Positions 6,629-36,393 of a stretch of 64,000 nucleotides of DNA are shown here, one piece after another. The DNA is taken from the NCBI GenBank assembly GCA_964561995.1, contig CAZLQZ010000003.1:5056-69055 (forward strand), written 5' to 3'. Each line of letters starts with the position of its first letter. Position 1 is the stretch's first letter. The notes beneath the pieces are model-generated. The model was not told the origin of the DNA and did not search any database. It saw only the letters and a program-made list of their open reading frames with translations. Origin of the DNA: an uncultured Methanosarcinales archaeon. Lineage in GTDB: Archaea > Nanobdellota > Nanobdellia > Woesearchaeales > JABIAG01. The translations under genes were made by a program, and so were the position numbers.

Positions 6629-7131
6629 TTTTGTACCAACACATCAATTATTATTTTTCCTTTCCAAAAATTAAAACCATCTCTAATTAATACAGGTCTT
6701 TCTACTTGCAAAGTTGCTAATCTTTCAGGATAATCTCTTAAAACATCAATTTCTGCATAATTTTTTTGCGTATCTTCATCATCTGAAACATAATACCTTT
6801 TTACAATTGAATTAGATGAATTAAACAAGTCTATTTTAAATGCGATATTATTTTTTTGAGTATATAACTTATTTGAAAAATCTACTGTTTGAAATTTATT
6901 TAAATCTACCACCCCGAATTCAACTCTTTTAGTAATTTGATCTTGATACATAATTAAATTTGAATTATAAATTTCTTCAGTAATTGATTGCATTTGAAGA
7001 TTTTCTACTTTGATGTCTTGTAAAACAAAAGTATAAGTAATAACTGAAACAACAATTACAGTAATTGCTAAGAAAATCATTTTCATAATGTACATTATAA
7101 AATCATAACTTAATGGACTTTCATTGGCCAT
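6625..7131 (-). CDS. N-terminally TM-anchored protein, 168 aa, within the pilin-like array
   Basis: N-terminus 'MANESPLSYDFIMYIMKMIFLAITVIVVSVITYTF'. The hydrophobic helix is present but there is no clear K/R-G motif. Confidence 0.5.
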   Translation of the reverse strand: MANESPLSYDFIMYIMKMIFLAITVIVVSVITYTFVLQDIKVENLQMQSITEEIYNSNLIMYQDQITKRVEFGVVDLNKFQTVDFSNKLYTQKNNIAFKIDLFNSSNSIVKRYYVSDDEDTQKNYAEIDVLRDYPERLATLQVERPVLIRDGFNFWKGKIIIDVLVQK

Positions 7132-8347: not shown

Positions 8348-8463
8348 ATTAAGAATTCTAATGTTTTTAGTATATAAATTTTGGGGAAAAGATTATGCTC
8401 ATAACGAAGTGAGGTTGTATAAATGTTTTATTTTTAAACTTAAAATTCACTTATAATCTTCAC

Positions 8464-9699: not shown

Positions 9700-9763
9700 A
9701 GTTATCAGAATAGAATTTAAGGTTTAAATACTTTTTTATTACAAATGAGTTATTTGGCTTTAA

Positions 9764-10264
9764 TTATTTTGCAAGAACACAACAACATCCATCTTTTGCC
9801 AAACAATCCTCTGCATGACCCACACATTTTGTAATTGAATCAAAAACATCTTGTTTGAAATCAGTTTTACACTTACTTTCGATATAACATCCTTTTTGTC
9901 TTGCACCAGTTTTAGAATCAACAATGTCAGAACACTTCTCAACAATACAACATTGAGAGTAGGTATCTATTTCATCATTAGAATAATCTGCTTGACTTAA
10001 TTTAAGTGCGACCTTTATTTGACTAGAAGGACAACCACCTTTTACCGTTCCCAATTGTTCGGAAGATTCAGTTGGACATCCTGTGTTTGAGCACATTCCA
10101 TAATTACTACCCACTGCATTTTCACAAGCAGAATAAGCCAAAACATTACTTGTACCAGACCTTATTTTAGTAATCCAAGGCAAACCAACAAAAGCTAAAA
10201 GTAAAAGTAAAACAACAGTAACTACCATAGTTGCCAATGCCAATTGTACTGCTTTTTTATTCAT
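9764..10264 (-). CDS. Pilin-like, extremely Cys-rich small protein, 166 aa
   Basis: N-terminus 'MNKKAVQLALATMVVTVVLLLLLAFVGL'; more than 20 Cys in about 130 mature residues. Confidence 0.6.
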   Translation of the reverse strand: MNKKAVQLALATMVVTVVLLLLLAFVGLPWITKIRSGTSNVLAYSACENAVGSNYGMCSNTGCPTESSEQLGTVKGGCPSSQIKVALKLSQADYSNDEIDTYSQCCIVEKCSDIVDSKTGARQKGCYIESKCKTDFKQDVFDSITKCVGHAEDCLAKDGCCCVLAK

Positions 10265-10324
10265 TTTTATTTTTTAGTTTTATTTGTTTTTAATTGTTTT
10301 GATTTTAATTAACTATTATATAAT

Positions 10325-11575
10325 TTACTTTGAACACAAATGGTTAGAATCACAATTTGCCGATTTACAATCCAAATTTATTAAACAATTTTCTCCAATT
10401 TCACATTTAAGACGACATGAACCACCACAATCAACATCGGTTTCGTCACCATCTTTTAAACCAGTATTACAAAAAAGATCCAAACAAATTCCTTCTTTAC
10501 CATACATAGTTTCACAAAAATCAGATTCACAATCTAAATCAATTTCGCATCGTTTTCCATTTTCACATTTAAAACAATGACCTCCACAATCAACATCGGT
10601 TTCATCACCATCTTTTGAACCAGTGTTACAATAATTTTTCATACACTTTTTTTCTTTATCATTTGCAGATATTCCACAAATACTAGATTCACAATCCTGA
10701 CCATTTAAACATTTATTATCGTATTCACATTTATTACATCTATCGCCACCACAGTCAACATCAGTTTCGTCAGGATCTTTGTTACCATTATTACAAAGAC
10801 TTTCACGACAAATTCCAGTTTTATCATTAGACATTTCACAAAAATCAGATTCACAATCTAAATCTATTGAACAATTTTTTCCATTTTCACAGCTATCACA
10901 TTCTTCACCACCACAGTCAACATCAGTTTCATCTTCATTAACTTCACCATCAAAACAACGATGTATATCTAAATCATAACCTTTATACTTACAATAAGAA
11001 ATAAAATATTTAATGCCTTTTTCTTCAGATTTTGAATTCATATCAACAGCTATTGTTTTATGTTCACCGTACAATGAATCAATAATTTCATCATAACTTC
11101 CTTCCTTATCATTAAACTTCAAAGTAAGTACATCGCCAGAATAAATATATTGAGTAGTATCACCATATAAATTAAATATTAATTCGTCCAAATAATTAAT
11201 TTTACATGAAGTTTCGCTATCTTTGCCTTCTTGTTCAAGATATATACAACATTTTAAATCATCAGCGATAGACTCTCTAGAATAAGTTATAAAATAATCT
11301 CCTTCAACTTTTGTTAATTTTTTACATTCCGCATTATTTAATACTGTGACTGAATCGTACTTTTTACCAGAACTTTTAACAATATCTAGTTCATTATATT
11401 CGTCTTTAATTTGAGAACAAAACTTTTTTGTTTTATCTTGAATTTCATTAAGACTTGAGCTTTGTTGGGAAAATGATTTGAAAACAATCAATAAAACAAC
11501 CGATGCAACAATAAGTACCATTACCATTATTACGGCTCCATTCATACTCAAACCAAAACCACCTTTCTTGTTCAT
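10325..11575 (-). CDS. Pilin-like protein (416 aa) with a paralogous N-domain plus four tandem six-Cys 'ETDVDCGG' modules; candidate tip adhesin
   Basis: N-terminus 'MNKKGGFGLSMNGAVIMVMVLIVASVVLLIVF'. Its N-domain aligns to the 137-aa protein 11635..12048 ('KFCSQ...ECKKL...LKCCIY' against 'KYCFQ...ECQVL...LLCCLY'). The C-terminal half holds 4 repeats 'NxGxKDxDETDVDCGGxxCxKCE..C....DCxSxxC'. A TATA-like motif lies in the upstream gap. Confidence 0.65.
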   Translation of the reverse strand: MNKKGGFGLSMNGAVIMVMVLIVASVVLLIVFKSFSQQSSSLNEIQDKTKKFCSQIKDEYNELDIVKSSGKKYDSVTVLNNAECKKLTKVEGDYFITYSRESIADDLKCCIYLEQEGKDSETSCKINYLDELIFNLYGDTTQYIYSGDVLTLKFNDKEGSYDEIIDSLYGEHKTIAVDMNSKSEEKGIKYFISYCKYKGYDLDIHRCFDGEVNEDETDVDCGGEECDSCENGKNCSIDLDCESDFCEMSNDKTGICRESLCNNGNKDPDETDVDCGGDRCNKCEYDNKCLNGQDCESSICGISANDKEKKCMKNYCNTGSKDGDETDVDCGGHCFKCENGKRCEIDLDCESDFCETMYGKEGICLDLFCNTGLKDGDETDVDCGGSCRLKCEIGENCLINLDCKSANCDSNHLCSK

Positions 11576-11634
11576 TATTTAAATAATTGAAGTTTTAATA
11601 TAAATACTTTCTTGTTTAAAAAACTTTTAAAAAA

Positions 11635-12048
11635 TTATTTCCCATCATCTGACCTATATAAACAACAGAGTAAATTATCTTCTTCTACATCTTTTGTTGT
11701 AAATACAGCATAATCAGTTTCTTTTATTCCTTTGTCGTCATCACCAACTTTAACAGAATTTGCTTTTTCTTTAGCTAATACTTGACATTCTGAATCTTTA
11801 AGAACATTAATTGATTGATACCTTATATATTGTTCATCTTCATTTTTTGAAGTTTCATATTTTTTATTTAACTCTTCAACAACTTGAAAACAATACTTAC
11901 TTCTTTTATCCTCAATATTGCCCAAATAACCTGAAAACGATCTCACTCTATTAAATACGGCAGGAATTGTAAAAGCTAATAAGAAAACTAAAACAAGCAT
12001 AATTGCAACCGTTGTAATTGTAAGTGACACGCCTTTATTGTTTATCAT
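11635..12048 (-). CDS. Pilin-like protein, 137 aa (paralogue of the N-domains of 10325..11575 and 12783..13145)
   Basis: N-terminus 'MINNKGVSLTITTVAIMLVLVFLLAF' (KG|V). Confidence 0.6.
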   Translation of the reverse strand: MINNKGVSLTITTVAIMLVLVFLLAFTIPAVFNRVRSFSGYLGNIEDKRSKYCFQVVEELNKKYETSKNEDEQYIRYQSINVLKDSECQVLAKEKANSVKVGDDDKGIKETDYAVFTTKDVEEDNLLCCLYRSDDGK

Positions 12049-12106
12049 GATATAAATTTAGAATGAAGATATATAAATATTATTATTTGTAGAAAAATTT
12101 AAAGAA

Positions 12107-12406
12107 TTACGTTGTTGCTGGAATACAACAAACTGATTTACCAAAAATACCCTTACTACATTCAACATTATTAGATTTACAAACATTGGCTCCAACATAC
12201 TGAATGTGTGTTTGTTTATTACATGATACACCACATGAAGTACAATCACCGCCTTTACTTTCACAATCACCAATACCAGTAGTAAATCCGCCAGCTTGTT
12301 CTCTAAATATAAAAATCATAATTAATAAAACTATTAAAGCTAAAACAGCTATAACGATAGTAGAAATCGATAATTCAAATCCTTTATTATTTTTGAATAG
12401 TTTCAT
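12107..12406 (-). CDS. Small Cys-rich archaeal pilin, 99 aa (candidate major pilin, copy 1)
   Basis: N-terminus 'MKLFKNNKGFELSISTIVIAVLALIVLLIMIF' is a textbook class III signal (KG|F). It is a tandem paralogue of 12424..12714; both share 'GGF..G..DC.SKGGDC..C....VCCI'. Confidence 0.7.
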   Translation of the reverse strand: MKLFKNNKGFELSISTIVIAVLALIVLLIMIFIFREQAGGFTTGIGDCESKGGDCTSCGVSCNKQTHIQYVGANVCKSNNVECSKGIFGKSVCCIPATT

Positions 12407-12423
12407 TTTAATATAAAAAAAAA

Positions 12424-12714
12424 TTAAACGTTTGCTTCTGGACTAATGCAACAAACTTGTTTTCCATCGCCTGCAGAATTGTCGATTTGTCCACAATCTG
12501 TTCTTGCGGGATATCTTACTATTTGTCCAGTTGAAACTGCATCAACAACATCACAAGAATCGTAACAATCTCCGCCTTTACTTCGACAATCTTTTACTCC
12601 TACAGCAAATCCACCAAATTGACCAGTAAATACTGCGACTAAAACAACTAAAATTAGTAAAGCAATAGCTGCAACAACAATTGTAGTTATTGATAATCCT
12701 TGACCTTTTGACAT
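12424..12714 (-). CDS. Small Cys-rich archaeal pilin (candidate major pilin, copy 2) with its own promoter and Shine-Dalgarno
   Basis: Starts 'MSKGQGLSITTIVVAAIALLILVVLVAVF' from ATG 12712-12714; the track's three extra codons begin at a GTG. AGGTG (12721-12725, minus sense) lies 6 nt upstream and a TATA box 'agtttataaata' (12733-12744) lies about 20 nt further up. Confidence 0.7.
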   Translation of the reverse strand: MSKGQGLSITTIVVAAIALLILVVLVAVFTGQFGGFAVGVKDCRSKGGDCYDSCDVVDAVSTGQIVRYPARTDCGQIDNSAGDGKQVCCISPEANV

Positions 12715-12732
12715 TATAGACACCTCATGTTA

Positions 12733-12744
12733 TATTTATAAACT
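12733..12744 (-). promoter_or_regulatory. TATA box of an internal promoter driving the small Cys-rich pilin gene 12424..12714
   Basis: Minus-strand 'AGTTTATAAATA' sits upstream of an AGGTG SD and the ATG, inside an otherwise coupled gene array. A second 'ttatatat' lies at about 12765. Confidence 0.5.
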
Positions 12745-12782
12745 TTTTATCGTGGTTCTAATATATAAATCTTTCTATGATT

Positions 12783-13145
12783 TTAAGAGCAATACTTTTT
12801 AACATTATCATCAGAATTACTTAAATTGGGATTATCTGTACAAAAAAACTTTTGTTTTTCTTCTTCTTCCATTATAACTTGTTCTGGACCAAAACATTCA
12901 GAAGAATATTCATAATAAGATAGTGCGGCAGTATTGTCGTGAAGTTTTGCTTGTAAATTTTTTGAAAAGTCACCCAAATTAGTTTTTGAAATTTCACAAT
13001 ACTTATTACCGGAACCAAGTCCAATAACAGAAGCAAGCCTATCCTTTGTTCCCTTAAAAACAGGAGCAAAAACCATTAAAAGTAATAAAGATATAATTAC
13101 AATTACCGAAAGAGTTAATGTTAAATTAAATCCTTTTTTATTCAT
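12783..13145 (-). CDS. Pilin-like protein, 120 aa
   Basis: N-terminus 'MNKKGFNLTLTLSVIVIISLLLLMVFAPVF' (KG|F). 'KYCE...ECFG' is related to the 11635 and 10325 N-domains. Confidence 0.6.
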   Translation of the reverse strand: MNKKGFNLTLTLSVIVIISLLLLMVFAPVFKGTKDRLASVIGLGSGNKYCEISKTNLGDFSKNLQAKLHDNTAALSYYEYSSECFGPEQVIMEEEEKQKFFCTDNPNLSNSDDNVKKYCS

Positions 13146-13291
13146 CTTATATTTTTATACGCTTGAAAAAAGTCGGCAGAGTTAATTAAAAACCAAATTA
13201 CAATAAATAATAATATTCCAAGCATAACCCAAATAATTATGCTTTTCCAAGCAAGATCAAATCCGCCTTTTTTATTATTAAATAATTTCAT
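13142..13291 (-). CDS. Minimal 49-aa prepilin ORF missed by the ORF track
   Basis: Hand translation of the minus strand: MKLFNNKKGGFDLAWKSIIIWVMLGILLFIVIWFLINSADFFQAYKNIR. Its ATG overlaps the TGA of 13288..14220 (ATGA), and its TGA overlaps the ATG of 12783..13145 (ATGA). Confidence 0.55.
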   Translation of the reverse strand: MKLFNNKKGGFDLAWKSIIIWVMLGILLFIVIWFLINSADFFQAYKNIR

Positions 13292-14220
13292 TCTTCAAAC
13301 AACCTCACAGGTATGTGAGTACAATTAATTTCTTTTGTTAGTGTTTCATTAGTATAAGGTCTTAATAAAACTTCCGAATAATGTTCAAAATCTTTAGCAG
13401 CAATTCTTGCTTGAATAGCAGCATAAGCTCCACCACCAATCACCAGTAATGTACCAACGCCTGCCGTAACCAAACCAACTGTAGCACCAATTCCAGTAGC
13501 AGAAGCACCCAATCCACCCTTAATAAAAAAAACTCCAGTTGCTACAGCAATTCCTGCCCCAGTTATCGCAGTTGCTGCCCCAACAACCATAGTTCCACCA
13601 GCAGCAGCAAATTGTGGACTTCTTTTTATATAATTTGACAACAAATCTTGTCCTTTAATATCTACGAAAATGACAGCATACCTTTCATCATCATTAAATA
13701 TCATTTTTTCATTGACAGATTCACGAGAAATTGCTTGCTCATAGTCTTGAACAATTTTGGCGTCTTGACTTTCAAAATCTTGTAAATAACTTAAATAGCT
13801 ATATCCTTTGCCAGGAACATAAGCGTCAACAAGGTATTTTCTAAATGCAGTAACTTCTTTAGTTTCTTCAGCTTCAATTATAGAACAAACTGAACAAAAG
13901 ACACCATCACCATTAAATAAATTCAATTTTCCTTCACCATACAGGTCCCAACATTCTCGCATTTCTTCTGCTAATTGTCCTTTAACTTTTTGTTCATTTC
14001 CTTTAAGAGTAATTTTATTTGCAGGACACTTGATTTCTTCAACTTTAGCTTTTAGACCATTATCCAATAATTTAGCATGAGTTTGTACACTAGTTTTACA
14101 AGTTCTATACCTTGTTGCCTCTTGAATGGTATCAGTAACAGTATAAACTAAAACTCCTAACAATGACAATATAATTAGAAAAAATATAACTTGTACCAAT
14201 TTGTTTTGAATAAATTCCAT
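13288..14220 (-). CDS. N-terminally anchored surface protein (310 aa) with a Gly/Ala-rich glycine-zipper TM hairpin near the C-terminus; paralogue of 14224..15042
   Basis: N-terminus 'MEFIQNKLVQVIFFLIILSLLGVLVYTV'. 'KCPANK...ECWDLYGEGKLN...CSVCS' aligns with 'KCPAKD...DCWDKFGEGKLN...CYVCS' of the neighbouring gene. C-terminal region 'AAAGGTMVVGAATAITGAGIAVATGVFFIKGGLGASATGIGATVGLVTAGVGTLLVIGGGAYAAI'. Confidence 0.6.
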   Translation of the reverse strand: MEFIQNKLVQVIFFLIILSLLGVLVYTVTDTIQEATRYRTCKTSVQTHAKLLDNGLKAKVEEIKCPANKITLKGNEQKVKGQLAEEMRECWDLYGEGKLNLFNGDGVFCSVCSIIEAEETKEVTAFRKYLVDAYVPGKGYSYLSYLQDFESQDAKIVQDYEQAISRESVNEKMIFNDDERYAVIFVDIKGQDLLSNYIKRSPQFAAAGGTMVVGAATAITGAGIAVATGVFFIKGGLGASATGIGATVGLVTAGVGTLLVIGGGAYAAIQARIAAKDFEHYSEVLLRPYTNETLTKEINCTHIPVRLFEE

Positions 14221-14223
14221 TTT

Positions 14224-15042
14224 TTAGTTTTCTAATGTATTACACACATCATTTATCTTTTCAGGTTCAATAAAAGCCATTTTTGAATATGTATCGTGAT
14301 TTGAAAATCCAAATGCAGCAGTCATGATTGTACCCCAAAAACCAGCATCTTTACCGCCCAAGTCCTTATTTACTACAAAGACATTAAGTAAATAATAAGT
14401 TTTTCCTTGTTTTAAATTTAAATTCCAGGGGTCAATAATTGCATCTTCAGCTTTACTAAACCAACCATCAAACCATAATTCTTTGTAACTTAACTTTTCA
14501 ATTCCATAAAAAGGTAAATTGTTTTTAAAAATAATTCCTGGTTCTAAAAAATCCCTATTTTTGTCATCTATTGAAAGATAAGTGTTTAAAGGGCCTTGCA
14601 TAACAAGTGATGAAAAAGAATTATCAGGCATTTTGAATTGTGAACAAACATAACAATGCGTTTTTCTTTTAGAATATTCACCCGGCAAAGGGTTTAGTTT
14701 TCCTTCACCAAACTTATCCCAACAATCAACCATTTCATCAGCCATTAACACTGCCATTTCTTTTTTAGCCCTATCTTCATTAGAACTCAAATCAATAGTA
14801 CCCAAATCTTTAGCAGGACATTTAGCATAAACAAAATCTTTATCATCCAAATATTTAGAAAACTCTGATGCTTTTAAAACTTCCAACTTACATTTCTTAC
14901 TATCTGTTTGACTTTCAGTATGTACTCTTAATTCATTTAAAAAAACAAACAAAATAGCAAAAATAAAAAGAGATATAATTATCACAACTAATGTTGTTTG
15001 CGTTAAAGTTACTCCTTTTTTGTTTTTTATCATTTTATACAA
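14224..15042 (-). CDS. Pilin-like protein, 272 aa (paralogue of 13288..14220)
   Basis: N-terminus 'MYKMIKNKKGVTLTQTTLVVIIISLFIFAILFVFL' (KG|V). Confidence 0.6.
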   Translation of the reverse strand: MYKMIKNKKGVTLTQTTLVVIIISLFIFAILFVFLNELRVHTESQTDSKKCKLEVLKASEFSKYLDDKDFVYAKCPAKDLGTIDLSSNEDRAKKEMAVLMADEMVDCWDKFGEGKLNPLPGEYSKRKTHCYVCSQFKMPDNSFSSLVMQGPLNTYLSIDDKNRDFLEPGIIFKNNLPFYGIEKLSYKELWFDGWFSKAEDAIIDPWNLNLKQGKTYYLLNVFVVNKDLGGKDAGFWGTIMTAAFGFSNHDTYSKMAFIEPEKINDVCNTLEN

Positions 15043-15128
15043 TATTATTTACAATTACTATTAAAAGTACGAAAAATATGATTAACAAAATCAAATACAA
15101 TAATGTTTTTAATGTTGGGGATAGCATT

Positions 15129-15689
15129 TTAACATACCTTTAATATTATCTCTACTGCTCCTTTATCGGACGTAAATATAAATGTATCTGCGTAAACCTT
15201 TCTTGCACGCTCACAACCAGTTACATCCGGTTCGAAGTTATAAGTTGTTTTATTAATCAAACAACCATCTCTCATTCTAATCTCAAATTCATAGTTTATC
15301 TTGCTTTCTTCTAAACTGTTTTTTAATATTTGCGTTATTGCACCATCTATTGGATTAAATAATTCATAATAACTATTAGTATATGAAGTACATTGAATTT
15401 GATCATAAGCATTTTCTGCATAAGCACATTTTTGAGGGTAAGTATCACTATAAGTTAAATGTGAAGCCACATCATTAATTAAAATTTCAACTCTTTGATT
15501 TTTACAATCAGTAGTCGTATCTTTCATAGTATTCAATATCTTAGTAGGAAGTTGCTTAAATAAAAAATCCTCAGCAATTTCTTGTTTTTCGTCTGAAAAT
15601 TTAATAAATAAAAGTAAACCAAGCATAAAAAGCACCATAATTATTGCTAATCCAAATATTTCCAATTGTCCTTTTTTATTGTTATTCAT
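15129..15689 (-). CDS. Pilin-like protein, 186 aa
   Basis: N-terminus 'MNNNKKGQLEIFGLAIIMVLFMLGLLLFIKF' (KG|Q). Confidence 0.6.
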   Translation of the reverse strand: MNNNKKGQLEIFGLAIIMVLFMLGLLLFIKFSDEKQEIAEDFLFKQLPTKILNTMKDTTTDCKNQRVEILINDVASHLTYSDTYPQKCAYAENAYDQIQCTSYTNSYYELFNPIDGAITQILKNSLEESKINYEFEIRMRDGCLINKTTYNFEPDVTGCERARKVYADTFIFTSDKGAVEIILKVC

Positions 15690-16288
15690 GAATATGCCTC
15701 AATAATTAACCAACCAAAATAACTAAGTTCTGGAACGCATCGTTTATCCAACAATGTTAAAGGAAAGTAAAATGTTTTTTTACTTTGTAATCCCGAACTA
15801 AAATCAAATAAAACTTTTTCTGGAACTGTTATGGTTGTATCAGTTGGATTTAATGCAAAAAACGCAGGTGCTTTTGTGTTACAATTATCTTCATCGAATG
15901 CTGGACTATAAACCCATCGAATTATTACTTTAGTATTTCCAAACTCTTCCCGATAATACCTCGGCCTAAACCGTACATTATCAACAAAACTCTGAAGTTT
16001 TTGAATTTCAAAACAATCTTTTGTTACATCTGAATTAATAGAACATTCCAATTCAGGAGTAAACAATACTTTTCGTGCAATTTCAGTTGCTTTTTGCTCA
16101 TTTAAAGTACTTGTTAACCTTTCTAATTTAGAAGCTTGAAAATTCGAATAAATACTAACTCCGATAATTAATAGAATAAAAAATACAAACAACACAACTG
16201 TTGATTCCATTAATTGAAGTTGGCCTTTCTTAGAAATCTTTGATTTCTGAGATACAAAAAATTTAATATGCTTAGTTGGGATTTTCAT
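15686..16288 (-). CDS. Pilin-like protein
   Basis: Class III motif 'SKKGQLQLMESTVVLFVFFILLIIGVSIY'. The probable start is the internal Met 'MKIPTK' at 16286-16288; the track's longer start (16321) would overlap the upstream gene by 32 nt. 4-nt overlap with the downstream gene. Confidence 0.55.
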   Translation of the reverse strand: MKIPTKHIKFFVSQKSKISKKGQLQLMESTVVLFVFFILLIIGVSIYSNFQASKLERLTSTLNEQKATEIARKVLFTPELECSINSDVTKDCFEIQKLQSFVDNVRFRPRYYREEFGNTKVIIRWVYSPAFDEDNCNTKAPAFFALNPTDTTITVPEKVLFDFSSGLQSKKTFYFPLTLLDKRCVPELSYFGWLIIEAYS

Positions 16289-16289
16289 T

Positions 16290-17315
16290 TTAATATATGG
16301 TTGCGCAAGACTTTCTTGCAAGTTTTCTATTTGTGTTTTCTAATATAAATTTACTATTTTGTAATTCATCAGTATCAATTAAATTAGAATAAAAAGTATC
16401 AAAAGCATCTAAATTTGGCAATATTTCAGTTTCTAAATCAGATTTACAATAAGTTCCCCTTACTACATTACCCCAATCATCATTACTATAATAATCAATA
16501 AAATAATTGGTTTTACCGACTAAGACTTTTGATGTTAGTCTCGATTTAAAAAATGCTTTTTTCATGTTACATTCAAATAAAGCAGCATCTTCAGAAAATA
16601 TTGCTCCTAAAATGGAATCTTTAACAAAATAAGGAAAACCATCGGGAAAATTGACCGTTTTATCGGGCCTACCATTATTAAAGAAAAATAATCCGGATTG
16701 ATTAATACAAATTTCGTGAGGTTTATTTTCAGAAGTACACTCGCCAATTTTAAAAAAAACATGCCTTACAAAATTAAAAGATGTGGGTTCTATTTGTGTA
16801 ACTATTCTTGAATCTTTATATCTTTGAGGAATCATGGAATAAACTTCACCACATAAACCATTACAATTAGCCGGAAAAACTATTTTTTCACCAGGAACAG
16901 CTAAATAAAGAAAATTTGCAGCATGGAATGGAATATCCCAACTTGAAGCAAATGAAATCAATTCAGTTGCTTGTAAATTTCTTATTGAAAATAAAGGTTG
17001 AGTATTAAAATCAATTGAAGCTTCAGAACTTTTTAAAGATAAAGAACTATCACAACCAATCAAATCAGAACAAGGTTCAGCACAATCATAAACAAAATGT
17101 TTATTTGAAATTTGAACTGTTGAAGAAGTATCAGTTGAAACAGATTTACCAATTAATAAATCTTCCATATCCTTAAGAATTCTCATTTCTAATTCTTTTT
17201 CTGTAATTTTTGTTTGAGCATTGATTATATTAAAAAAAAACATCATAATTACTGCTCCCGCAATGAGTACAAATACCCAATTAAAAACCACAGGAGTTAA
17301 GGCCTTAGAATTCAT
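16290..17315 (-). CDS. Pilin-like protein with a large ecto-domain, 341 aa
   Basis: N-terminus 'MNSKALTPVVFNWVFVLIAGAVIMMFFFNII'. Confidence 0.55.
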   Translation of the reverse strand: MNSKALTPVVFNWVFVLIAGAVIMMFFFNIINAQTKITEKELEMRILKDMEDLLIGKSVSTDTSSTVQISNKHFVYDCAEPCSDLIGCDSSLSLKSSEASIDFNTQPLFSIRNLQATELISFASSWDIPFHAANFLYLAVPGEKIVFPANCNGLCGEVYSMIPQRYKDSRIVTQIEPTSFNFVRHVFFKIGECTSENKPHEICINQSGLFFFNNGRPDKTVNFPDGFPYFVKDSILGAIFSEDAALFECNMKKAFFKSRLTSKVLVGKTNYFIDYYSNDDWGNVVRGTYCKSDLETEILPNLDAFDTFYSNLIDTDELQNSKFILENTNRKLARKSCATIY

Positions 17316-17815
17316 CTTGTCAATGGTTGAATTTTCGTTGCGTCACCCAAACCTTCCATCTTAACTTCAATTTTACCATACTTAGTTTCATAACAAGTGT
17401 AATTATCGTCGTTAATACTAGTGAAATTTCCAATTTTAACACTTCCTAAATCAAATGCTTCTAAAACAAAACCGCCCTTTCCTAATAAAAATAAATTTTT
17501 GTTTGGAGATTCTCCTTCATAAGCTTGTAAAGCATAAGGCACTAAATTTCTATAAAAACTACAATCACTACAAGAAGTAATAAAACAAACTTGTTCGATT
17601 TTACTAGGAACATTATAAGAAAACACTTCAGAAGTACCCCTTAATCTTCTTACAGAATCTACATCTTCAAATATTTTATTAGTTAATTTAACCAAGGACA
17701 CATCATCAGAAGTTGAAAATATTGCGGCAATTCCTTTAAAAGATATTAAAAACATTAATCCTATTACTAAAGCAATTAAAATAAAAATAAATACTGTTGA
17801 TGTTTGTGCTTTCAT
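17312..17815 (-). CDS. Pilin-like protein (167 aa), translationally coupled to the giant gene
   Basis: N-terminus 'MKAQTSTVFIFILIALVIGLMFLISF' (KA|Q). Its ATG (17813-17815) overlaps the TGA of the giant ORF (17812-17814), forming ATGA. Confidence 0.6.
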   Translation of the reverse strand: MKAQTSTVFIFILIALVIGLMFLISFKGIAAIFSTSDDVSLVKLTNKIFEDVDSVRRLRGTSEVFSYNVPSKIEQVCFITSCSDCSFYRNLVPYALQAYEGESPNKNLFLLGKGGFVLEAFDLGSVKIGNFTSINDDNYTCYETKYGKIEVKMEGLGDATKIQPLTR

Positions 17816-20800
17816 TTTTTAGTCATCCTCTTTAATTTTTTGAATGGTGAAGATCTATTTTTCTTTTCGGGTAGTTGTTTTAAATCTTTAAATACGCCGG
17901 GCCCCGATTTAGGTTTTTCTAATGCTTCTAAATCTTTTTGTAACTTTTTTAATCTTGAAAAGGCATCATCAACATCAGATTTTGGTTTTTTAGTTGACTT
18001 TGCTTTTTTATTTAATTCATCTAAACTTATAAATTTATTACTTTTCTTTTTTCTTTTGGTTCTTTTCTTTTTAGGCTTTGTTTTGGGTTTTATAGGTTTA
18101 GAAATTGTTGATTTTGCTAAAGGTTTGCCACTGATTTTATTTTCAATAGGTTTTGTTTTAGTTAAAGGGGAAAGTTTCTTTTTCAAAGGAGGTAAATTCT
18201 TATTTAAAGATATAACCTTTTTACCCAAAGGAGGTAATTTTTTATTTAAAGGGGGAAGTTTACTCGTTAAAGGGGGCAATTTATTTAATGGTTTTCCAGT
18301 CCTGCCCAAGGGTGGAAAAGAATTTTTTGGTCTAACCCTTGGTGCGGTGGATAGGGAAAGTGGTGGCTTAGCAAAAAATTGCTTATAAGCAAAGAACCCA
18401 CCTACACCTAGAGCTGCCAAAACTAATAAAATTAGTAATAATAAAGGCCAAATTGAACCACCATCAGAAGCATCTAATGGATCTCTTCCAGCAGAAATTT
18501 CATCGCCGTCATTCATATTATCGTCATCACTATCCTCGTTTTTCGGATCAGTATTATATTGACTTTCTTGTAAATTGGTTAGACCATCTTTATCAGGGTC
18601 TAAAAATGCATCTGCGCTATCTCTTGGATCTAAATTAAATCTTATTTCCCAATCATTATCCATACCGTCCCCATCAATATCTTCGTCACACTCATCTCCT
18701 TTTCCATCACCATCTAAATCAGCTTGATTTTCATTAGGAACATTGTCACAGTTATCATTTGAATTCAAGAATCCATCATCATCGGAATCTACATCTTTTT
18801 CAGTACATCTTCCCGAGTCACACAATCCAGATAAACAATCTGCATTTTCAAAACAAACACTTCCTAAAGAACATTGATAGTATGGTAAACAAACTCCGCC
18901 ACAATCTAAATCAGATTCTCCAAAATCTAAATTGCCATTTTCACAAGAGTCCAATTCACAAACACCATTTACTACATCGCAATTCTCAGATTCACAATCT
19001 GAATTCAAATCACATTCTTCATCAATATCACACTTCTTTGAACATGTTCTTCCACAATCTACATCGGTTTCTTTACCATTTTTAATTCCATCACTACAAC
19101 TTGGAGCTAAACATACATTTGAAACGCAATTATCATAAATACAATCACTATCGTTTATACAAACTTTATTGTTGTAACATGAACCACACTGAGGTCCACC
19201 ACAATCTATATCAGTTTCATTACCGTTTTTAATATCATCGTCACATTCGGGAGGAGCTTTAGAATAATCAACAGTAAATTCGTCAGATTCTAAATCATCA
19301 CTTTCTAATCCAACATTATTTACTGCAATAACTTTCAAAACGTATTCAGTATCATTTTCTAAATCATTAACATCAAATCTTCCAGAAGCAATATATAATA
19401 TACCAGATTCAAACTCTACCGTTTCATTAACACACTCTTGCCCTTCTGAAGTCGAGATTTTATCGTCATCTAAGAAATCTTCATCTTCTAAACATTCCTC
19501 AATATCATCAGATTCTGAATCAGTTAATGCAAATTCCAAATAACAATCAAATCTATCATCTTCATCGTCATCAGCACTTCTTAAACAACTAACTAATTTA
19601 TCAACACTTAAATCAACCGAATCTACATCACTATCTATTTCGTCATCTATTGGTTCATCATCCAATTTTTCATAGATTTCCAATTTAAATTTATTTATTC
19701 CTGATTCATTATCATAAGCACTAACAAAATATCTTACTTCTTCATCATAATATGAATATTCTTCATCAACTAGACCCGTAATTTTGACTTGCTTCATTTC
19801 TGGTTCAGTCAAATCAACAATAAAAGAAGATGTTGCAGTTGTTGTATTAAGATTATAAATTCCAAATCTTCTACACATTACATCCAATTGGTAAGAACCA
19901 GTTTCCAAATCAGTAACTGGTCTGTAATGTTCTCTTTGATCAGATATAGTAAGATTGTTTGAAACTGAATTTAATTCAAATTCACAGCTTGCGGGTTTAT
20001 TAGTAGTTACAGCAATTGTTAATGAAGAGTTGCTTAATTTTGCACCATTTACTGGTCTTAAAATAGTTGCTGCAAATTCAGCACCAGGGTCTACTTGAAC
20101 ATCTACTGCACCAGTCCAATTATAACCTGCCTTATCAACACATCTGATTTGTATTGTGTTTACAGTATTATTATTAAGATGCTGTCCAACAACAAATTCT
20201 TGAGATTGTAAACTTTTGTAACTAGTTTCGATATCTTCATCCAAACCAGCAAAGATTTCCCATCCTAAAGAAACATTTCTATAACAAACCATGTTTTTCT
20301 CATCAGTAGTATATGCATACAAAATTCCAGAGTCAGTTGTAACCTTATTCATGTTTAAAGTTACACTCAAAGAATCTATGTCTTTTGTAATTACAAATGT
20401 GGCTGCATGATCAATTCCTTCTGCTTCTCCACCATAATTTTGATCTCTACAGATAACATATAATGGTTGATCAAACAATCCAGTAAATCCAGTTTGGTTA
20501 TGAATTATTTCATTTAATGATGAAAAATCTCTCATTTCAGTGGCATCGAAGTTGGTATCAAAATTAGACCACCTACATTCGGCACTTCTAGAAGTTTCAA
20601 TAACAAAATCTACAGGATCAATTTTAGTGTAACCAAAACTTGGATTAATTAATTTGATTCTAAAATCTTCAATTTCAATTTTAAAATTAAATACTTGTTT
20701 ATTTCCTTTATTTCCATATTGATCAATAGCTTCTATTTCTAAAACATAATCTGCTTCATTTAAATTTTCAAGAACTGAAATTGTAAAATTGTTAGAATTG

Positions 20801-23800
20801 TTATCGGTAATTGAAGTCAATACAATATTATCAGAATCATCTTTAATTACATAATAACTTACATTTACATTTTCTTGATAAATTATTGTCATATTTGGAC
20901 GGAGTTCAGTAAGAATATTTTCTAAAACGTCTGCTGCCGAAAATGGACTTTCGGGTTTGTAACCTTGTTGAATTATATTTACTTCGTCAAGCGAAACAAA
21001 TAAAAATTTATCATCAACATGAATTGCCTGATTCAAAAGTTCTTCTAATTCCTCGGGGTCAGCACTATCAAAAGGAAATGCTTCAATAAATTGATTTACA
21101 TCATTTTCAATGATATTTTGAAATTCTAAAGCTCTTAAATTGGATTTAAAAGACATAATAAGCACTCTTACATCTTCATCCGATTCACTTTTATAAGCTA
21201 AATTTAATGCATTTTCAATTCCAAAATCTTTTGCTTCATCACCTAACCCCACAATATCATACTCTTCATAAGTATAACCAATAATTTCTGAATTGATTTT
21301 GTCAATTAAATCTTTAATTTTACTTGTATAAGATAATTCTACAAATTCAGGTCCATCAGTATCAACCAAGAAATTACCTTTATATGTTCCGACATTGTTT
21401 GATATAACGCCAGTAGCGTTTATTTCATACTCATAATTTCCATCTGACGGAACTGTGAAGCTAAAATTAAATTCTACATAAGTTGCAGAAGCTGCATTTG
21501 CATCATGACTATATCCATCAATAAGTAATTCAGAATCTTTTACTTCTTTATCTGAAAATGCAGCAATTTCAATATCTTTAGAAGTTAAAACATTATCATT
21601 AACTGAATCGATAGTAATAACTGGCAAAGAATCATCAATAGTAAATTCAATTGAATTAGTTGGACCTTTACCACCTAAAATATTTATTAAAGTAATATTT
21701 AAAGTATAAGTTCCATTAGGAATCACTCCGAAATCCGATAAAGAAACTTTACTTAATTCTGAATTGATTTCAATAGTTCCATCGTTACATTTTGAATCAT
21801 CATTGCATAAAACTACATTAGTTTCATTATACACAATAAATTCTGCCTTGTTTACTTCAACTTCAGAATCAAATTTAGCAGAAACCTCAAATAATTTACC
21901 ATATTCCCCGTAATTTTCAGGAACTCTTAATTTGTTATCTAATACAACAGGTAAATTAGTGGTAAAATTAACAACGACACTTGATTGAGCAACATTACCT
22001 ACTTCATCAGCAACCTCCACTGTAATAACATTAATTCCTTTTTGAACTAGTTGAGCAGTTGTTGTATGTTCGCCATCTAAAGCAAATAGTTCTTCAGTTA
22101 AAATGTTATTAATAAATATCTTTGCTGTAACGTCTTCAAAAACTTCATATTTAAGTTCAGGATAAGTATTAGTTAAATACGGTCTTAAATTATCATAAGG
22201 TGTAATTATTCTTGCAGGGTCTACAGTTGTATCAACTTCAAAACTAACTACTTCATAAACGTCCGATATTTTTGGATCAAAAGGAAAACAAGATATTGAA
22301 AAGGGATAAATTCCATCTTTTAAATCAACAATAGAATTAGAAAGGTATGAAAATTGCAATTCATGATTTTTAAGATTATCATTTTCAGATTCCAATCTTA
22401 AAGTAACTTCTCCACTCGAATTAATTAAATATCCACCATCGAAATGAACATCACAAACTGCATCCCAATAAGTTTTAACTAATAATTTAGGTGTTGCATC
22501 TGCGGTTTTACCATTAGGTTTAATACTAACAATTTGTAATTCTAAATCAGTATCTACTGTTAAATTAACTTCTTGTTCAACGAAATTACCTGCACGGTCT
22601 AAACAATTAACAAAATAAGTATAATTACCATCCCCCACTCTGAACTCATCAGTTGAAAAAGTTGTTCCAAAGTCTTGTCCTAAAGAAGTGTAAACTGCTT
22701 CATCTTTTTCTTTATATTTACATTTAATTTCATCAAGAGAACTAACAGTTAAACGAGTTTTATTAATTTCATACAGCAAGTAATCATTAACTTCAACTTT
22801 AAATGCATTTTCAAATTCTGAACTAAAAACAGGTTCATTAAAATCAACAACAAGTTCTAATTGTGTTGTTTTATTATTACCAAATAAATCTTTACATGAT
22901 ACATCTAAACTATTACTTCCTTCAATTAGTTCTTCAACCATAGTATGATTAAATATAGTATCATTTTCTTTATTCATTGACATTTTATCATTATCAAAGT
23001 AAGAGACATAACATTCAGTACTTGGTTCGTGAGTTATGATTTTAAATGTAGCAAGGAGTTTATTTGTATATCCAGGATTTATATTTTGAGGGAAAAATAA
23101 TACTTTTGGGCCGTCTTTATCGGTAATCATGTTAATCAAATAGGATTTATCATTTCCTACATCATCTTGAATTGTAACATAAAGTACGTTTGATGTTTCA
23201 GCATTTTCCTCTTCTTCTAAAGTAACACCATTAATATCAAATTCAACATCATTACCACGTATAATTACATCATAACTGTCATCAGTATTGTCTAAGTAAG
23301 AAGATAAAATTATAGATGCATCAGTATCATCTTTATTATATCGCCCAAAGATATTAACTAATGAAGAATTTGTTCTAAATGCATAATCGTGAGTTTGTGA
23401 ATCTGCAGTCATAATTACACCATCATTACCAGTAACATCAATAAATGTGATTTCGGGAGTTGAATTGTCCACAAATATCGACCTATTAAATGAGTCTGAA
23501 ACTCTTCTTGAAGAATCATTTGCATAAATCTCAATTATGTGTTGTCCAGGCTCAAGATTAAATTCAATATCGTCGTCTTCGCCAAATTTGTAAATGCCAA
23601 AACCCTCACTATCTGTTTGAATATATTCTGCTATTTTTGTTGTAAATAATAAATTGTCAACTAAAACAGACAATGTTTTGATTCCATCACTTCCAACAGA
23701 ATAATCTTTTAATCTTCCCTTTAAACTAATTTTTTGATATTTTGATCTGATGTTATCCATGCTTTGGGTACTATCATAAACATCAGAAACTACAATGCTA

Positions 23801-26800
23801 TTTTTTACCAAAGGTACATCTGCATCCAATTTAAGACTGTATATTTCAGGAGTAGAATTGTCTACAAAGAATGAATAAGTGGAAGGAATTTCTGAATCAA
23901 CAAATAATATTTCTCTTACTGAGATTAAAATTTCACAATGTGAACATTTCCATTCTTCTTTAGGTGTTAAATTAAATAATCTTTTACCATCTCCAGTATC
24001 TGCAATAGTAATATTGACAATGAAATCATCTTGATTCATTAAAACTTCATCACCGCCATATTCTCTTACTTCGATAGGAGTTTTTATTGCATCTGTAAAT
24101 CCTAATTCTAAATCACTATCTTTTTTATCTTCAGCATCATTAAACTTAACAAACAAAGACTCTTTATCACTTTGAGTATATTCTGGTGCAAAAGTCCAAT
24201 CTGTATCATCACCTAAACTCCAACCAACAACACCGGGCATGCTTGTATCAAAACCAAAAGCTAATTTAAAAGGAGTTGGGAAAGGACTAAGTAAGAATTG
24301 GTCTTTTTCATTAACAGATGCTTTATTTCCAAAATCATCTTCTACACTATAATATATAAAATATATTGAATCTTCCCATCTTGAAGGACTTTCTAAGTCT
24401 AATGCATAGAATTGGAAAGTTGCTTCTGTTAAAGATTCAGCATTAGGATTTATTTCCCAAGTTTCATTTTCTTCTACAGTTGGACTCCAAGTATATTTGT
24501 AAAGTATAAATGTTCCATTATTAATTCCTGCATTATCTTTAAATGTTAAAGTAAATGGGTCATCAACATTACTTAAATATTGATTATGTTCATTAATTAT
24601 TGAATCATATAAAGGGCGACTTTGCATTTTTAATATTGAAGGGCCTTTCCAATCATTAATAAAAATAATTGTTTCTGAAGAAATGGAATTACCTGCTAAA
24701 TCTGTAACATTGAAAATAAAAGTTTTATTTACTTCTAAATTTTCAAGTTTTTCAATATTAAAACTATAATATAAAGAATCATTTATTTCTGATTTTCTTT
24801 CGTAGGTATTGTCATGGTCTTTTTCATTTAAAGTAATTAATGAAAATTCATTTACGCTAATGTTTATTTCTAGTTCAAAATTGTCTGGAACATGATAATA
24901 ATAAAGTATGCTTCCGCTTCTTTCTATTGGTTGACCGGGATATTCGGGATGAAATTCAGAATAAGTTGTTGGTACTATTTCTTCAATTTCTGGATCAATA
25001 GTGTCTAATGTAATGTTTAAAACAAAAGGATTTTCCATTTCATTATCTAAATCATCTTTAGCAATAAGTGTGATTTCTTCTAGGTCCCCTTCTTCTAATT
25101 CTAAATTTAATGTGATATTGTATGACAAATTCTTTCCAACTTGAACAAAAGATTCATGCTGTAATGGAAGATTTATTTCTGAATCAAAATAAGTTAATTT
25201 TACGTCGCTTAATTCATCAAGATTTTCAGCAATGTCGATTTGTAAACACATCAAACCACTTTCTTGAGTGTAATAAGAATTGCCAAGTCTACTGATTTCA
25301 GTTAATGGTGAACCACAACTTCCCAAACTTAAAATCATATCGTTGACAATTGGAGGTTGGTCATCTAAAGTTAAATTAACTCCATCAATTGGAACTCCGC
25401 AATCATTCGAAGTAAAACATTCATAATTTTTGGAATCAGTTAATTTTCCCGAACATTCAATATTAATTGTATTAACAACATTTTCAAAGAAATCATTTTT
25501 ATCTAAAGATGCTTTGTAAACGCCACCAGATTCAAATAATTCTTTTGCTCTTCCAACTATAGGTACGTTATCTTGATAAGATAATGTTTTTCTAGATTTG
25601 GTTATTCCAGTTTGGGAATTTTTAACAATATAAGAACACTTAATTGGATCTTGATCTTCGGAATATTTCCCACCAGGAACATTTGTTCCAATAATCAAAT
25701 CATAATTATCAAAATTTGGAACCCTTGAATTGTTTTCAGGTTGAATAAATGAAAAATTAAGTTTCGGATTAGATTGATAATTAAAACTTCCTTGAATTGT
25801 ATTTTCTTTACCATAATAATTTTTACAAATGATTGTTAAATCTGCATTATAATTTTTACCAACTTCTAAATCATTAGCAATTTCTTCAGACATAGAAACT
25901 TTTTTAGGTACAACTAAATCAAATAATTTATCTTCATAAGTTACTATATTTTTGCTTGGATTGTTTTGTGTAAAATTATAATTACATTTAACTTTTATAT
26001 TTTCTTGAGTATAAACTTCCATAGTAAAAGTTTCAGTCAAAAAGGACTGAGTTGTAATTATGGGAGAGAGTTCTAAGGGACTTTTTAATGTATAATCATC
26101 ATTATTAAGATATAATGGCCTAAATTCATAAATTTCATTTTCAAGTTCATCAACACAAGTAAAATGTAAATATTGCTGAGTTGCTAATGACAAAAATTCA
26201 ATTGAATGATTATAACCAAAAACATTATCATCTTCATTTGATGCTTGATTTCCAGAATTAGCCGGTTTTTCATTAGTATATTGATTACTAACCCAACACT
26301 TAGCAGGCTCATTTGTTTTAAAATAAATTTCAACATTGTCATTAATAGTATAATAACCCGGACCAAAATAATCATTACTTATTTCTGTATCAAAGTGATA
26401 ATAAGATTCTTTTCCTTCGGTAAAACTATTAGAATGCTCAATAACTGGACCAGCATTATCAATATTCATTTTTGCAAAAGAAAAACCAACATTATTTGCT
26501 AAATCGTTTGCTTGACATACAACAACTATCCTATTTTCTTTACCTGAATCTGGCAATTCAATATCATCTGTTGAAATATCAAAAGCATCAGAATAATCAT
26601 TAACTCCATTATTCATATAGGGTGTCCAATTATAAGAATAGTTGTTATAATTAACTTCTGACACATCTTCAAAAATTTTGTATATTATATTTTGACAATC
26701 TGTATCATCACTACATTCACAACTAAAGTTTGCAATTATGCCGTCACCAATCCATTTGAATTTAAGAGGTGCTAAAGTATCATTTAATTTTGCATCAATT

Positions 26801-36392: not shown

Positions 36393-36393
36393 T

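Follow-up and report, generated by a model that had tools for sequence, protein, structure and literature searches.

Why should a giant archaeal surface protein carry a long, basic tail behind its only C-terminal transmembrane (TM) helix, and is such a tail the oddity of one protein or a part that recurs? The question arises from a stretch of 64,000 nucleotides of contig CAZLQZ010000003.1 from an uncultured archaeon (the window; G+C content 28%), in which a single open reading frame (ORF) encodes a protein of 5,682 residues. The region under study, positions 17812-18800, is the 3' end of this ORF. We found that the TM helix and the tail together form a module that recurs in other DPANN archaea and that is new by the searches made: a conserved cytoplasmic tail module, so far undescribed, on a membrane-anchored giant adhesin. 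What looked like an odd single C-terminus is now a defined, recurrent module on surface proteins of 900-5,700 residues from Woesearchaeota, Nanoarchaeota and Aenigmarchaeota. With some reserve, we regard it as probable that this is an anchoring module of a DPANN surface-protein family, the tail motifs of which dock to an intracellular or inner-leaflet partner.

The features of the giant gene are given below. Structure predictions were made with AlphaFold2 (AF2) and are quoted with their predicted local distance difference test (pLDDT) values; TSP3 denotes the thrombospondin type 3 repeat.

17812..34860 (-): giant gene, a single ORF of 5,682 aa, product identical to database protein P0103
34783..34860 (-): putative signal peptide MQKRGIVLGLVVFLVLFLTILFPVFA, followed by DV, Sec-type in appearance with an AxA-like site, hydropathy maximal at aa 6-24
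18802..19248 (-): three Cys-rich repeats of ~48 aa each, E(T/S)DxDCGGxCxxC...DC...C, kept in all family members
18646..18795 (-): canonical TSP3 unit, aa 5356-5405, with a Cys pair and three DxDxDG motifs
18463..18633 (-): pair of degenerate TSP3 repeats of the bacterial type, DPDKDGLTNLQE and DSDDDNMNDGDE, ending in RDPLDASD beside the membrane
18385..18453 (-): TM helix IWPLLLLILLVLAALGVGGFFAY, aa 5470-5492, with the cytoplasmic end GVGGFFAY (family motif G-x-G-G-[YF]-[YF]-x-[YF])
18073..18324 (-): basic Pro-rich spacer with six xKLPPLxx heptads (aa 5513-5569), then KP-rich sequence
18043..18090 (-): polybasic cluster KPKTKPKKKRTKRKKK, recognized by inspection of the sequence
17998..18039 (-): motif A, NKFISLDELNKKAK, pattern [YWF][IV]x[LV]xxL and then K-rich, alignment columns 218-235
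17914..17976 (-): motif B copy 1, DVDDAFSRLKKLQKDLEALEK (DDAFSRLKKL), helix in AF2 with pLDDT ~85 with and without the family alignment
17860..17904 (-): motif B copy 2, GPGVFKDLKQLPEKK (GVFKDLKQL), from the motif scan and AF2
17815..17853 (-): motif B copy 3, SSPFKKLKRMTKK-COOH (core SPFKKLKRMTKK-COOH), at the extreme C-terminus

A hydropathy analysis over the full length of the protein revealed only two hydrophobic segments, aa 6-24 and aa 5470-5492. The first lies in the signal peptide, which is predicted to be cleaved. Related proteins show ..LVSA/AD, ..PAFA/DT and ..VSA/QQ at this position (the slash marks the presumed site), and the N-termini of the family are of the Sec type. A class III (prepilin-type) signal, read as KRG/IVLG, was also considered for the giant protein and was dropped in favor of a Sec signal, because the relatives have classical AxA sites there. 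The second segment is the TM helix, which AF2 models as a helix (pLDDT 83-96) and which occupies exactly the position 18385-18453 that an earlier note on this DNA had assigned to it. The contrast between the two sides of this helix is extreme. The ectodomain carries a net charge of -612 and the 60 residues before the helix one of -15, compared with +48 for the tail. N-terminal to the helix we count 147 cysteines, in the tail none; 83 of the 84 N-x-S/T sequons for N-glycosylation are located N-terminal to it and one on the tail side. Hydropathy, charge, the distribution of cysteines and sequons, and homology strongly support a type-I single-pass protein with an N-terminal signal peptide, one C-terminal TM helix and a positive inside, which is the topology that the earlier note had proposed. 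An inverted topology is a minor alternative. Equally strong support exists for an extracellular ectodomain of ~5,440 residues that is acidic, Cys-rich and Ig-like: the Pfam model Big_13 reaches 55.7 bits (gathering cut-off 27), with other Ig-like models below threshold.

The tail length of 190 residues given in the note is exact, and all peptide strings quoted there (the TSP3-like strings, KPKTKPKKKRTKRKKK and LKKLQKDLEALEK) were found in the translation. An identical product of 5,682 residues is on record at NCBI, at ENA and in an independent Logan assembly, and nothing in these three records points to an assembly artefact or to a variable length of the giant protein. An antisense ORF at 17804..18388 (+; 194 aa, TTG start) is an F/L/G-rich mirror of the K/P-rich tail that has no support and is almost certainly not a gene.

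The tail module and its relatives

An exhaustive phmmer search with aa 5440-5682 as the query against 1.84e9 (1.84 billion) representative sequences gave 32 matches with E<=1e-3, about 25 of which align at their own C-termini. The members of this family are between about 900 and 5,682 residues in size. Among them, P0109 (1,073 aa) matches aa 5167-5667 of the giant protein in blastp with E 3e-72, and P0117 (3,902 aa) is a full-length homolog, which aligns with aa 1-2455 (E 1e-145) and with aa 4683-5483 (E 1e-83, both blastp). Four members bear organism names, namely Candidatus Woesearchaeota, Aenigmarchaeota, Nanoarchaeota and Nanoarchaeia, and these are annotated as 'hypothetical protein' or as 'thrombospondin type 3 repeat-containing protein'. 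One member was recovered from the 0.1-0.22 µm size fraction of a mesopelagic TARA sample.

The family architecture starts with Ig-like domains with paired cysteines, three Cys-rich repeats and a TSP3/TSP3_bac part, which ends in the sequence TDPxDxxx[HK]P, conserved just outside the TM helix. It continues with the GxGG[YF][YF]x[YF] TM helix, a basic Pro-rich stretch, motif A and one to three copies of motif B. The giant protein has the Cys-rich repeats, TSP3 part, TM helix and net-positive tail and also motifs A and B. The tails of the members (27 of 27) are 73-382 residues long, all are net positive (+6 to +51), and all are Pro-rich near the membrane. The tail of the giant protein had been called unusual in the earlier note. 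This description is apt in relation to textbook archaeal surface-layer (S-layer) proteins only; within the DPANN family it does not apply, since 27/27 members have tails.

Within the tails, sequence similarity centers on the two motifs. Motif B takes the form [ED]-D-V-F-x-[KR]-L-[KS]-K-[IL]-x-K-K in the family and occurs in one to three copies, often a few residues from the C-terminus; the C-termini of the relatives are accordingly alike (e.g. ESPFEKLSKIVKK and DEFKKLSKLNKKNKK). The tail of the giant protein contains motif A once and motif B three times. The helices predicted by AF2 coincide exactly with motif A and with the copies B1, B2 and B3, both with and without the family alignment, and with the alignment they have pLDDT values of 71-86. 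Motif A is modeled as a helix of residues 5613-5622 (pLDDT ~74), and the third copy of motif B has the highest helical hydrophobic moment of the tail (0.75). Of the 27 tails, 21 contain a loose form of motif B, compared with 3.4 +/- 1.7 (maximum 9) in 2,000 shuffles. The strict form occurs 15 times, where 0.04 occurrences are expected (maximum 2; 2,000 shuffles), and a scan of the six-frame ORFs of the window and of five related loci found no further occurrence. The residues in front of the motif also show preferences: among 33 instances, position -2 is D in 15, and position -3 is E in 10, S in 7 and D in 5. Smith-Waterman alignments of the tails alone, judged against 300 composition shuffles, gave z>3 for 12 of 26 relatives with a median z of 2.85. 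Conservation of the tail sequence thus appears to be real but weak and is concentrated in the motifs.

The conserved parts of the C-terminus, which are probably also its functional ones, are the TM helix and the distal helical motifs, and the KLPPL region is a lineage-variable spacer. The view of the note that the tail acts inside the cell is strengthened, as the distal motifs are kept in relatives and are predicted to be helical. Its emphasis has to be moved. The KLPPL repeats on which it had focused are the variable spacer, whereas the sequence LKKLQKDLEALEK, which it had described as coiled, is one of the conserved distal motifs.

No model in Pfam or NCBIfam covers the module of TM helix plus tail, and neither the module nor the family is described in the papers searched. 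The idea that ectodomain and tail are orphans was abandoned, since the exhaustive phmmer search and local blastp both revealed homologs. A word-indexed protein search had returned nothing for aa 4250-5250 and only P0113 with a profile of the tails; it missed every true relative, even the query itself, and its 'no homolog' is not to be trusted for low-complexity, divergent sequences of this kind. A DNA scan of the GTDB representatives yielded no relative of the giant protein, and a DNA scan of JGI metagenomes yielded a single match, which covers TSP3 only; an exact look-up of the 167-aa protein encoded next to it was without success. The signature of the module can be cast into a hidden Markov model for finding adhesin loci, and its peptides of 10-20 residues could serve as bait for a partner inside the cell.

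Several relatives carry additional elements in their tails. The tails of P0105, P0107, P0116, P0121 and P0134 have a helical extension of ~60 residues with repeated KI(T/N)xxDxxxxLxxL. In P0130 (2,184 aa) the tail ORF continues, at residues of about 2020-2184, into a sequence that resembles the downstream pilin-like gene (MMQGEMFTYILTIITIGFLLYF...); a fusion by read-through or an overlooked stop codon could account for this. In P0122 and P0123 the end of the tail is formed by a Cys motif, KFHKPGC...PCSVCKS, which could be a zinc ribbon and has no Pfam match at E<=0.01. An Ada-like zinc-binding domain was considered for these two tails and was discarded, as Pfam offers no match at that threshold.

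Repeats on both sides of the membrane

The earlier note had read calcium-binding TSP3-type repeats just outside the TM helix, and the comparison with solved structures bears this out. In a phmmer search of the PDB the canonical unit (aa 5356-5405) matches COMP (3fby, E 9e-15), TSP-2 (2rhp, E 2e-11) and TSP-1 (1ux6, E 2.5e-8), and the alignments span both cysteines of the long-repeat pair (DNC ... GDxCD). The unit shares with the repeats of thrombospondins and COMP (PF02412; 3fby, 2rhp, 1yo8, 1ux6) the full long-repeat signature including the Cys pair, DNC-x4-N-x2-Q-x-D-x-D-x-D-G-x-G-D-x-C-D-x-D-x-D-x-D-G. In contrast to thrombospondins, the giant protein has one canonical unit and no C-terminal lectin-like domain, and its repeats make up a juxtamembrane stalk in an archaeal protein. 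All five motifs of the type DxDxD[GN]xx[DN]xx[DE] are located at aa 5358-5454, with none elsewhere in the 5,682 residues. The matches of the word-indexed search to the last 329 residues, which cover 7-40% of the query, are TSP3-repeat proteins in 102 of 102 cases. Similarity to the solved structures strongly supports the assignment of the juxtamembrane repeats as genuine TSP3-type repeats; from this similarity and the motifs, the segment is predicted to bind calcium.

The profile models proposed as a check gave a divided answer. Both match, at scores below their cut-offs: TSP_3 (PF02412) reaches 17.3-20.2 bits with a gathering cut-off of 25, and the 22-residue TSP3_bac model (PF18884) reaches 14.1 bits with a cut-off of 25; the structure matches, on the other hand, are significant. 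The scores remain sub-threshold because the segment consists of one canonical unit and two degenerate units of the bacterial type. The homologous juxtamembrane units of the relatives score 36-68 bits on PF18884, above the cut-off, and the TSP3_bac copy in the giant protein is therefore a degenerate one. With the family alignment, AF2 models the part comprising these degenerate repeats and the TM helix with pLDDT values of 85-96. For the ~48-residue Cys-rich repeat in front of the TSP3 segment, a Pfam scan found no matching model. This repeat is also present in the surrounding operon, with four copies by eye in a 416-aa protein and about two in a 411-aa protein.

TSP3 units placed before a C-terminal TM helix are typical of bacterial proteins with sorting domains, and several of the database matches are named MYXO-CTERM. 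This raises the question whether the TM helix and the tail are a sorting signal, which an enzyme of the archaeosortase/exosortase type would cleave off to leave the mature protein anchored to lipid or wall. The giant protein does share with the bacterial TSP3 proteins (PF18884, many of them with MYXO-CTERM) units of the form DxDxDGLxNxxE...TDP right before the TM helix, and the conserved TDPxDxxx[HK]P just outside the membrane would fit such a signal as well. Known signals of this kind, however, end about 5-10 basic residues past the TM helix, whereas 190 residues with conserved motifs follow here in place of a short sorting signal. At E<=1 none of the NCBIfam models for sorting domains matches, and a PGF, PEP or similar signature is absent; compared with PGF-CTERM-type signals in particular, both the signature tripeptide and a model match are missing. 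We therefore assign cleavage by a sortase-type enzyme a very low probability.

On the cytoplasmic side, the 190 residues of the tail comprise 51 Lys (27%), 8 Arg, 26 Pro, 25 Leu and no Cys. The element L[PS]PL is found five times, a count that none of 20,000 composition-preserving shuffles reached, and LPPL is absent from the 5,469-residue ectodomain. The earlier note had counted about five KLPPL units; literal KLPPL occurs three times, next to the variants NLPPL, KLSPL and SFPPL. AF2 leaves the spacer (aa 5497-5612) disordered, with pLDDT values of 45-57 in the presence of the family alignment. Its sequence varies between lineages, and the relatives have other repeats of the type [KR]-P-hydrophobic, such as RPGMPARPGVP, PIKAPIKVPVKQPIKP and HRPMPHRPLVHRP.

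The earlier note had further described tandem DNA repeats of 33-36 nt in this region and had expected the tail length to be unstable. If so, the KLPPL region would be a slippage-prone contingency locus, the tail length of which varies between cells or strains. Tandem Repeats Finder does detect an array at 18156-18287, with periods of 21 and 42 nt; the actual period is 7 residues or 21 nt, and the value of 33-36 nt has to be given up. The array is degenerate: its units match at 65%, and the longest exact direct repeat within the tail DNA is 12 nt. The units also differ synonymously (Leu as TTG, CTT or TTA; Pro-Pro as CCC CCT or CCT CCT). As these codon differences leave the peptide intact, we read the repeat as an old duplication maintained by selection at the protein level and not as a slippage-prone array. 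The expected instability finds no footing in these units, and the identical length of the product in three sources, one of them an independent assembly, also speaks against it. Slippage is thus scarcely probable.

A proposed docking role for the tail and an electrostatic alternative

Based on the conserved motifs and the predicted topology, we propose the following role for the module. The basic spacer would follow the anionic inner leaflet or lie close to it, and would fix the topology of the protein. The conserved tail helices would be short linear motifs at which a conserved partner docks; this partner may be a protein or the bilayer surface. Docking would tether the giant adhesin, and possibly position or cluster it, with respect to the pilin-like apparatus that the surrounding genes encode (see below). 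The conserved Gly-rich TM helix probably packs on another membrane component.

In an alternative mechanism the tail would need no specific partner. It would merely be a topogenic stop-transfer signal and an electrostatic stopper, in which the polybasic segment on anionic lipids prevents a single TM helix from being pulled out by an ectodomain of 5,400 residues; the helices would be in-plane anchors like the membrane-targeting sequence of MinD or the effector domain of MARCKS. The net positive charge of 27/27 tails is in line with this mechanism, and so is the lack of sequence conservation in the spacer. Motif B itself is amphipathic, with the highest hydrophobic moment of the tail (0.75), is flanked by Lys, and is present in one to three copies that are often at the extreme C-terminus. 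In addition, the operon encodes no cytoplasmic partner. Membrane-targeting helices, however, usually preserve amphipathicity and not sequence, whereas here specific residues recur, including the acidic ones at positions -2 and -3. Motif A is conserved too, and a few residues would suffice for a topogenic signal, as opposed to the 73-382 residues observed. We consider the purely electrostatic mechanism a serious alternative, if rather unlikely. A specific partner is preferred over pure electrostatics because specific residues (the acidic positions -2/-3, motif A) recur in otherwise divergent tails.

As targets of the tail inside the cell, the earlier note had suggested nucleic acid or a cytoskeleton-like structure, which we regard as speculative. 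A tail with 27% Lys that contains KPKTKPKKKRTKRKKK could also be thought to bind nucleic acid in the manner of histone H1 or of the KP-rich AlgP, and thereby link the adhesin to the nucleoid or to a transfer of DNA or RNA. The relative P0125 ends in (KKKPT)n repeats, and the terminal Cys motif of P0122 and P0123 is a candidate zinc ribbon, which would both agree with such a function. No nucleic-acid-binding family, however, matches the tail or the relatives at E<=0.01. What is conserved are the amphipathic helices and not the polybasic runs, and composition by itself is no evidence. Binding of nucleic acid is accordingly improbable.

Several points weigh against the proposed docking function. 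Among the conserved products of the operon a candidate partner for the tail is absent, and all conserved neighbors look extracytoplasmic, with one N-terminal helix each. The pilin-like neighbors have no pilin match in Pfam or NCBIfam, even at E<=10, and a gene for a filament ATPase or platform protein is absent both from the 64-kb window and from the 10 kb around the family genes of the related loci. The topology is drawn from hydropathy, charge, the distribution of cysteines and sequons, and homology. The significant E-values of the phmmer search include the TM helix and the TSP3 flank; a phmmer search with the tail only is not significant at the scale of the whole library (best match P0106, E 0.6). 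The relatives were collected with a query that contained the tail, and the similarity of the tails is thus partly ascertained. The regular expressions for the motifs were written after inspection of the sequences. Finally, a purely electrostatic role of the tail would explain its composition without a partner.

Consequences follow from either mechanism. Should the tail have a specific partner, as we prefer, the module would be a rare instance of transmembrane coupling by an archaeal surface adhesin. Should it have none, it would be a clear case of a polybasic anchor with an adaptation for retaining ectodomains of very large size in one membrane.

The arrangement of a variable spacer and short terminal helices has analogs in other proteins. 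The C-terminal tail of FtsZ, the MinD helix, the MARCKS effector and the TonB spacer likewise pair a spacer that is variable and either Pro-rich or basic with a short, conserved amphipathic helix, and they end in basic residues. We also examined motif B as a possible homolog of the ESCRT motif MIM1 (LxxRLxxL) or of the FtsZ motif (DIPxFLR) and rejected this, as the hydrophobic spacing is 3-3 versus 4-3; no homology is claimed.

Giant adhesins of bacteria such as LapA, SiiE and MpIBP are RTX adhesins of type I secretion systems (T1SS). They carry RTX nonapeptides, a T1SS signal at the C-terminus and, at the N-terminus, a retention plug that sits in an outer membrane. The giant protein resembles them in its size, its tandem Ig-like domains, its acidic, putatively calcium-binding repeats and its presumed role in adhesion. 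It differs from them by a Sec signal, by TSP3 motifs and by the C-terminal TM helix with its tail, and no RTX model of Pfam matches anywhere in the whole protein. A closer analogy in architecture may exist to integrin beta and to cadherins, which are type-I adhesion receptors with short cytoplasmic tails carrying linear motifs for adaptor proteins. Like these, the giant protein would combine a large, calcium-dependent ectodomain and one TM helix with a disordered tail bearing short docking motifs. There is no sequence relationship to these receptors, and the tail of the giant protein is far more basic. We know of no adaptor in archaea for such tails.

A more far-reaching version of the docking mechanism, which we regard as unlikely, would make the giant protein an archaeal adhesion receptor, in which a giant, host-binding ectodomain is coupled via the TM helix and the DVFxKLSKI motifs to a dedicated intracellular partner. 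If it were true, the partner that reads the receptor could be a filament motor, a cytoskeletal element or a factor of division or remodelling. To our knowledge, DPANN archaea live attached to other cells, and the molecules of attachment are mostly unknown. Under this version the ultra-small DPANN symbionts would signal attachment inwards or would position an attachment organelle, a kind of linkage that is undescribed in archaea.

Gene neighborhood and other genes of the window

The giant gene is part of an uninterrupted run of 18 genes on the same strand, from 37863 down to 3993 (-). The relevant features of this operon and of its surroundings are:

34950..37863 (-): two upstream genes for proteins of 480 and 489 aa; the 480-aa protein begins with MKGQVTIF... 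and is a conserved upstream neighbor
17312..17815 (-): downstream gene for a 167-aa protein with an N-terminal hydrophobic helix, an ATGA start/stop overlap of 4 nt with the giant gene, a conserved neighbor
3993..17315 (-): downstream array of 14 genes, with one N-terminal hydrophobic helix in each product and many pilin-like (class III-like) [KR][GA]Q sequences
10325-11575 and 8464-9699 (-): the two operon proteins with the Cys-rich repeat, through which blastp links them to the giant protein
50516..51460 (+): homolog of Peptidase_A24, the prepilin peptidase family (32.9 bits, cut-off 26.5)

Almost all of the 18 operon proteins carry one hydrophobic helix at the N-terminus. In 10-12 of them, a short basic segment that ends in [KR][GA], often followed by Gln, precedes this helix, as in archaeal class III (prepilin-type) signals. 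Five other contigs (L082, L084, L086, L088 and L089) share this gene order and have homologous genes, with a protein of ~456-480 residues upstream and proteins of ~155-167, 331-357, 163-218 and 159-191 residues downstream. For L082 and L084 the neighbors match in blastp with E-values from 1e-8 to 2e-34, e.g. the 341-aa protein with 2e-34 and the 211-aa protein with 1.5e-18; the upstream 480-aa protein matches a 456-aa protein of L084 (E 1.7e-15) and was also found in a Logan contig. L086, L088 and L089 show the matching pattern of gene sizes, and in L089 the ATGA-type overlap of 4 nt is present as well.

The architecture of the giant protein is both fused and split among these loci. In the window and in L088, ectodomain and anchor are encoded by one giant ORF. 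In three others, an ectodomain ORF lies adjacent to an anchor ORF of ~1,000 residues: 5,051 + 1,090 residues in L086 (1-13273), 1,949 + 1,001 in L089 (171-9034) and 1,205 + 1,073 in L084 (2644-9496). In L086 the ORF of 5,051 residues stops 2 nt before that of 1,090 residues, which is in another frame. In L089 the operon of P0132 also includes a gene (13638-15821) for a protein of 727 residues that contains an SLT lytic-transglycosylase domain (PF01464). One would not expect this domain in an archaeon, and it may hint at an action on bacterial peptidoglycan.

Large adhesin-like proteins rich in Ig domains are reported to be frequent in archaeal type-IV-filament (TFF) loci, and an Epd-like 'system 1' is reported from DPANN (bioRxiv 10.64898/2026.04.22.720090). 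Cluster-2 DPANN are reported to share conserved loci for type IV pili (T4P) (PMC11291902). The present locus, a candidate at most for such a system, shares with them the large Ig-like protein (Big_13), the pilin-like N-termini, a nearby A24 homolog and the DPANN host. It differs from them in having no ATPase or platform gene within reach, and the accessible text of these papers describes no module of TM helix plus tail. Two proteins, encoded at 13288-14220 (-) and 56380-58203 (-), have a pilin-like helix at the N-terminus and, at the C-terminus, a cluster of hydrophobic segments rich in Gly and Ala. They could be candidate membrane components that pack against the Gly-rich TM helix of the giant protein.

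Among the other genes of the window are those for a TATA-box-binding protein (63393..63950) and for an RPA-like protein with an OB fold (oligonucleotide/oligosaccharide-binding). The closest GTDB relatives of a cysteine desulfurase (54-57% identity) are mainly in metagenome-assembled genomes of Woesearchaeota, Pacearchaeota and Nanoarchaeia. Together with the A24 homolog, these genes point to an archaeal source, in all likelihood a member of DPANN from the Woesearchaeota/Nanoarchaeota group. Scans of the window for tRNAs and with Rfam found nothing. Two large Cys-rich proteins with an N-terminal hydrophobic segment are probably exported: one of 1,390 residues with 78 Cys at 42960-47132 (+) and one of 1,289 residues with 47 Cys at 52532-56401 (-). 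The latter contains repeated acidic 'QCQDGIDNDGDG' motifs and has a sub-threshold match to Big_7.

A 981-aa protein at 38228-41173 (+) contains two radical-SAM domains, a SPASM domain and Peptidase_U32. It adjoins an ORF of 84 residues at 37902-38156 (-), which a precomputed annotation labels HxsD (PF27806) and which has no match in a Pfam scan at E<=0.001. Two more radical-SAM genes are located at 47371-48735 (-) and 58573-59811 (-). The radical-SAM genes and the 84-aa ORF suggest a peptide-maturation system beside the operon of surface proteins.

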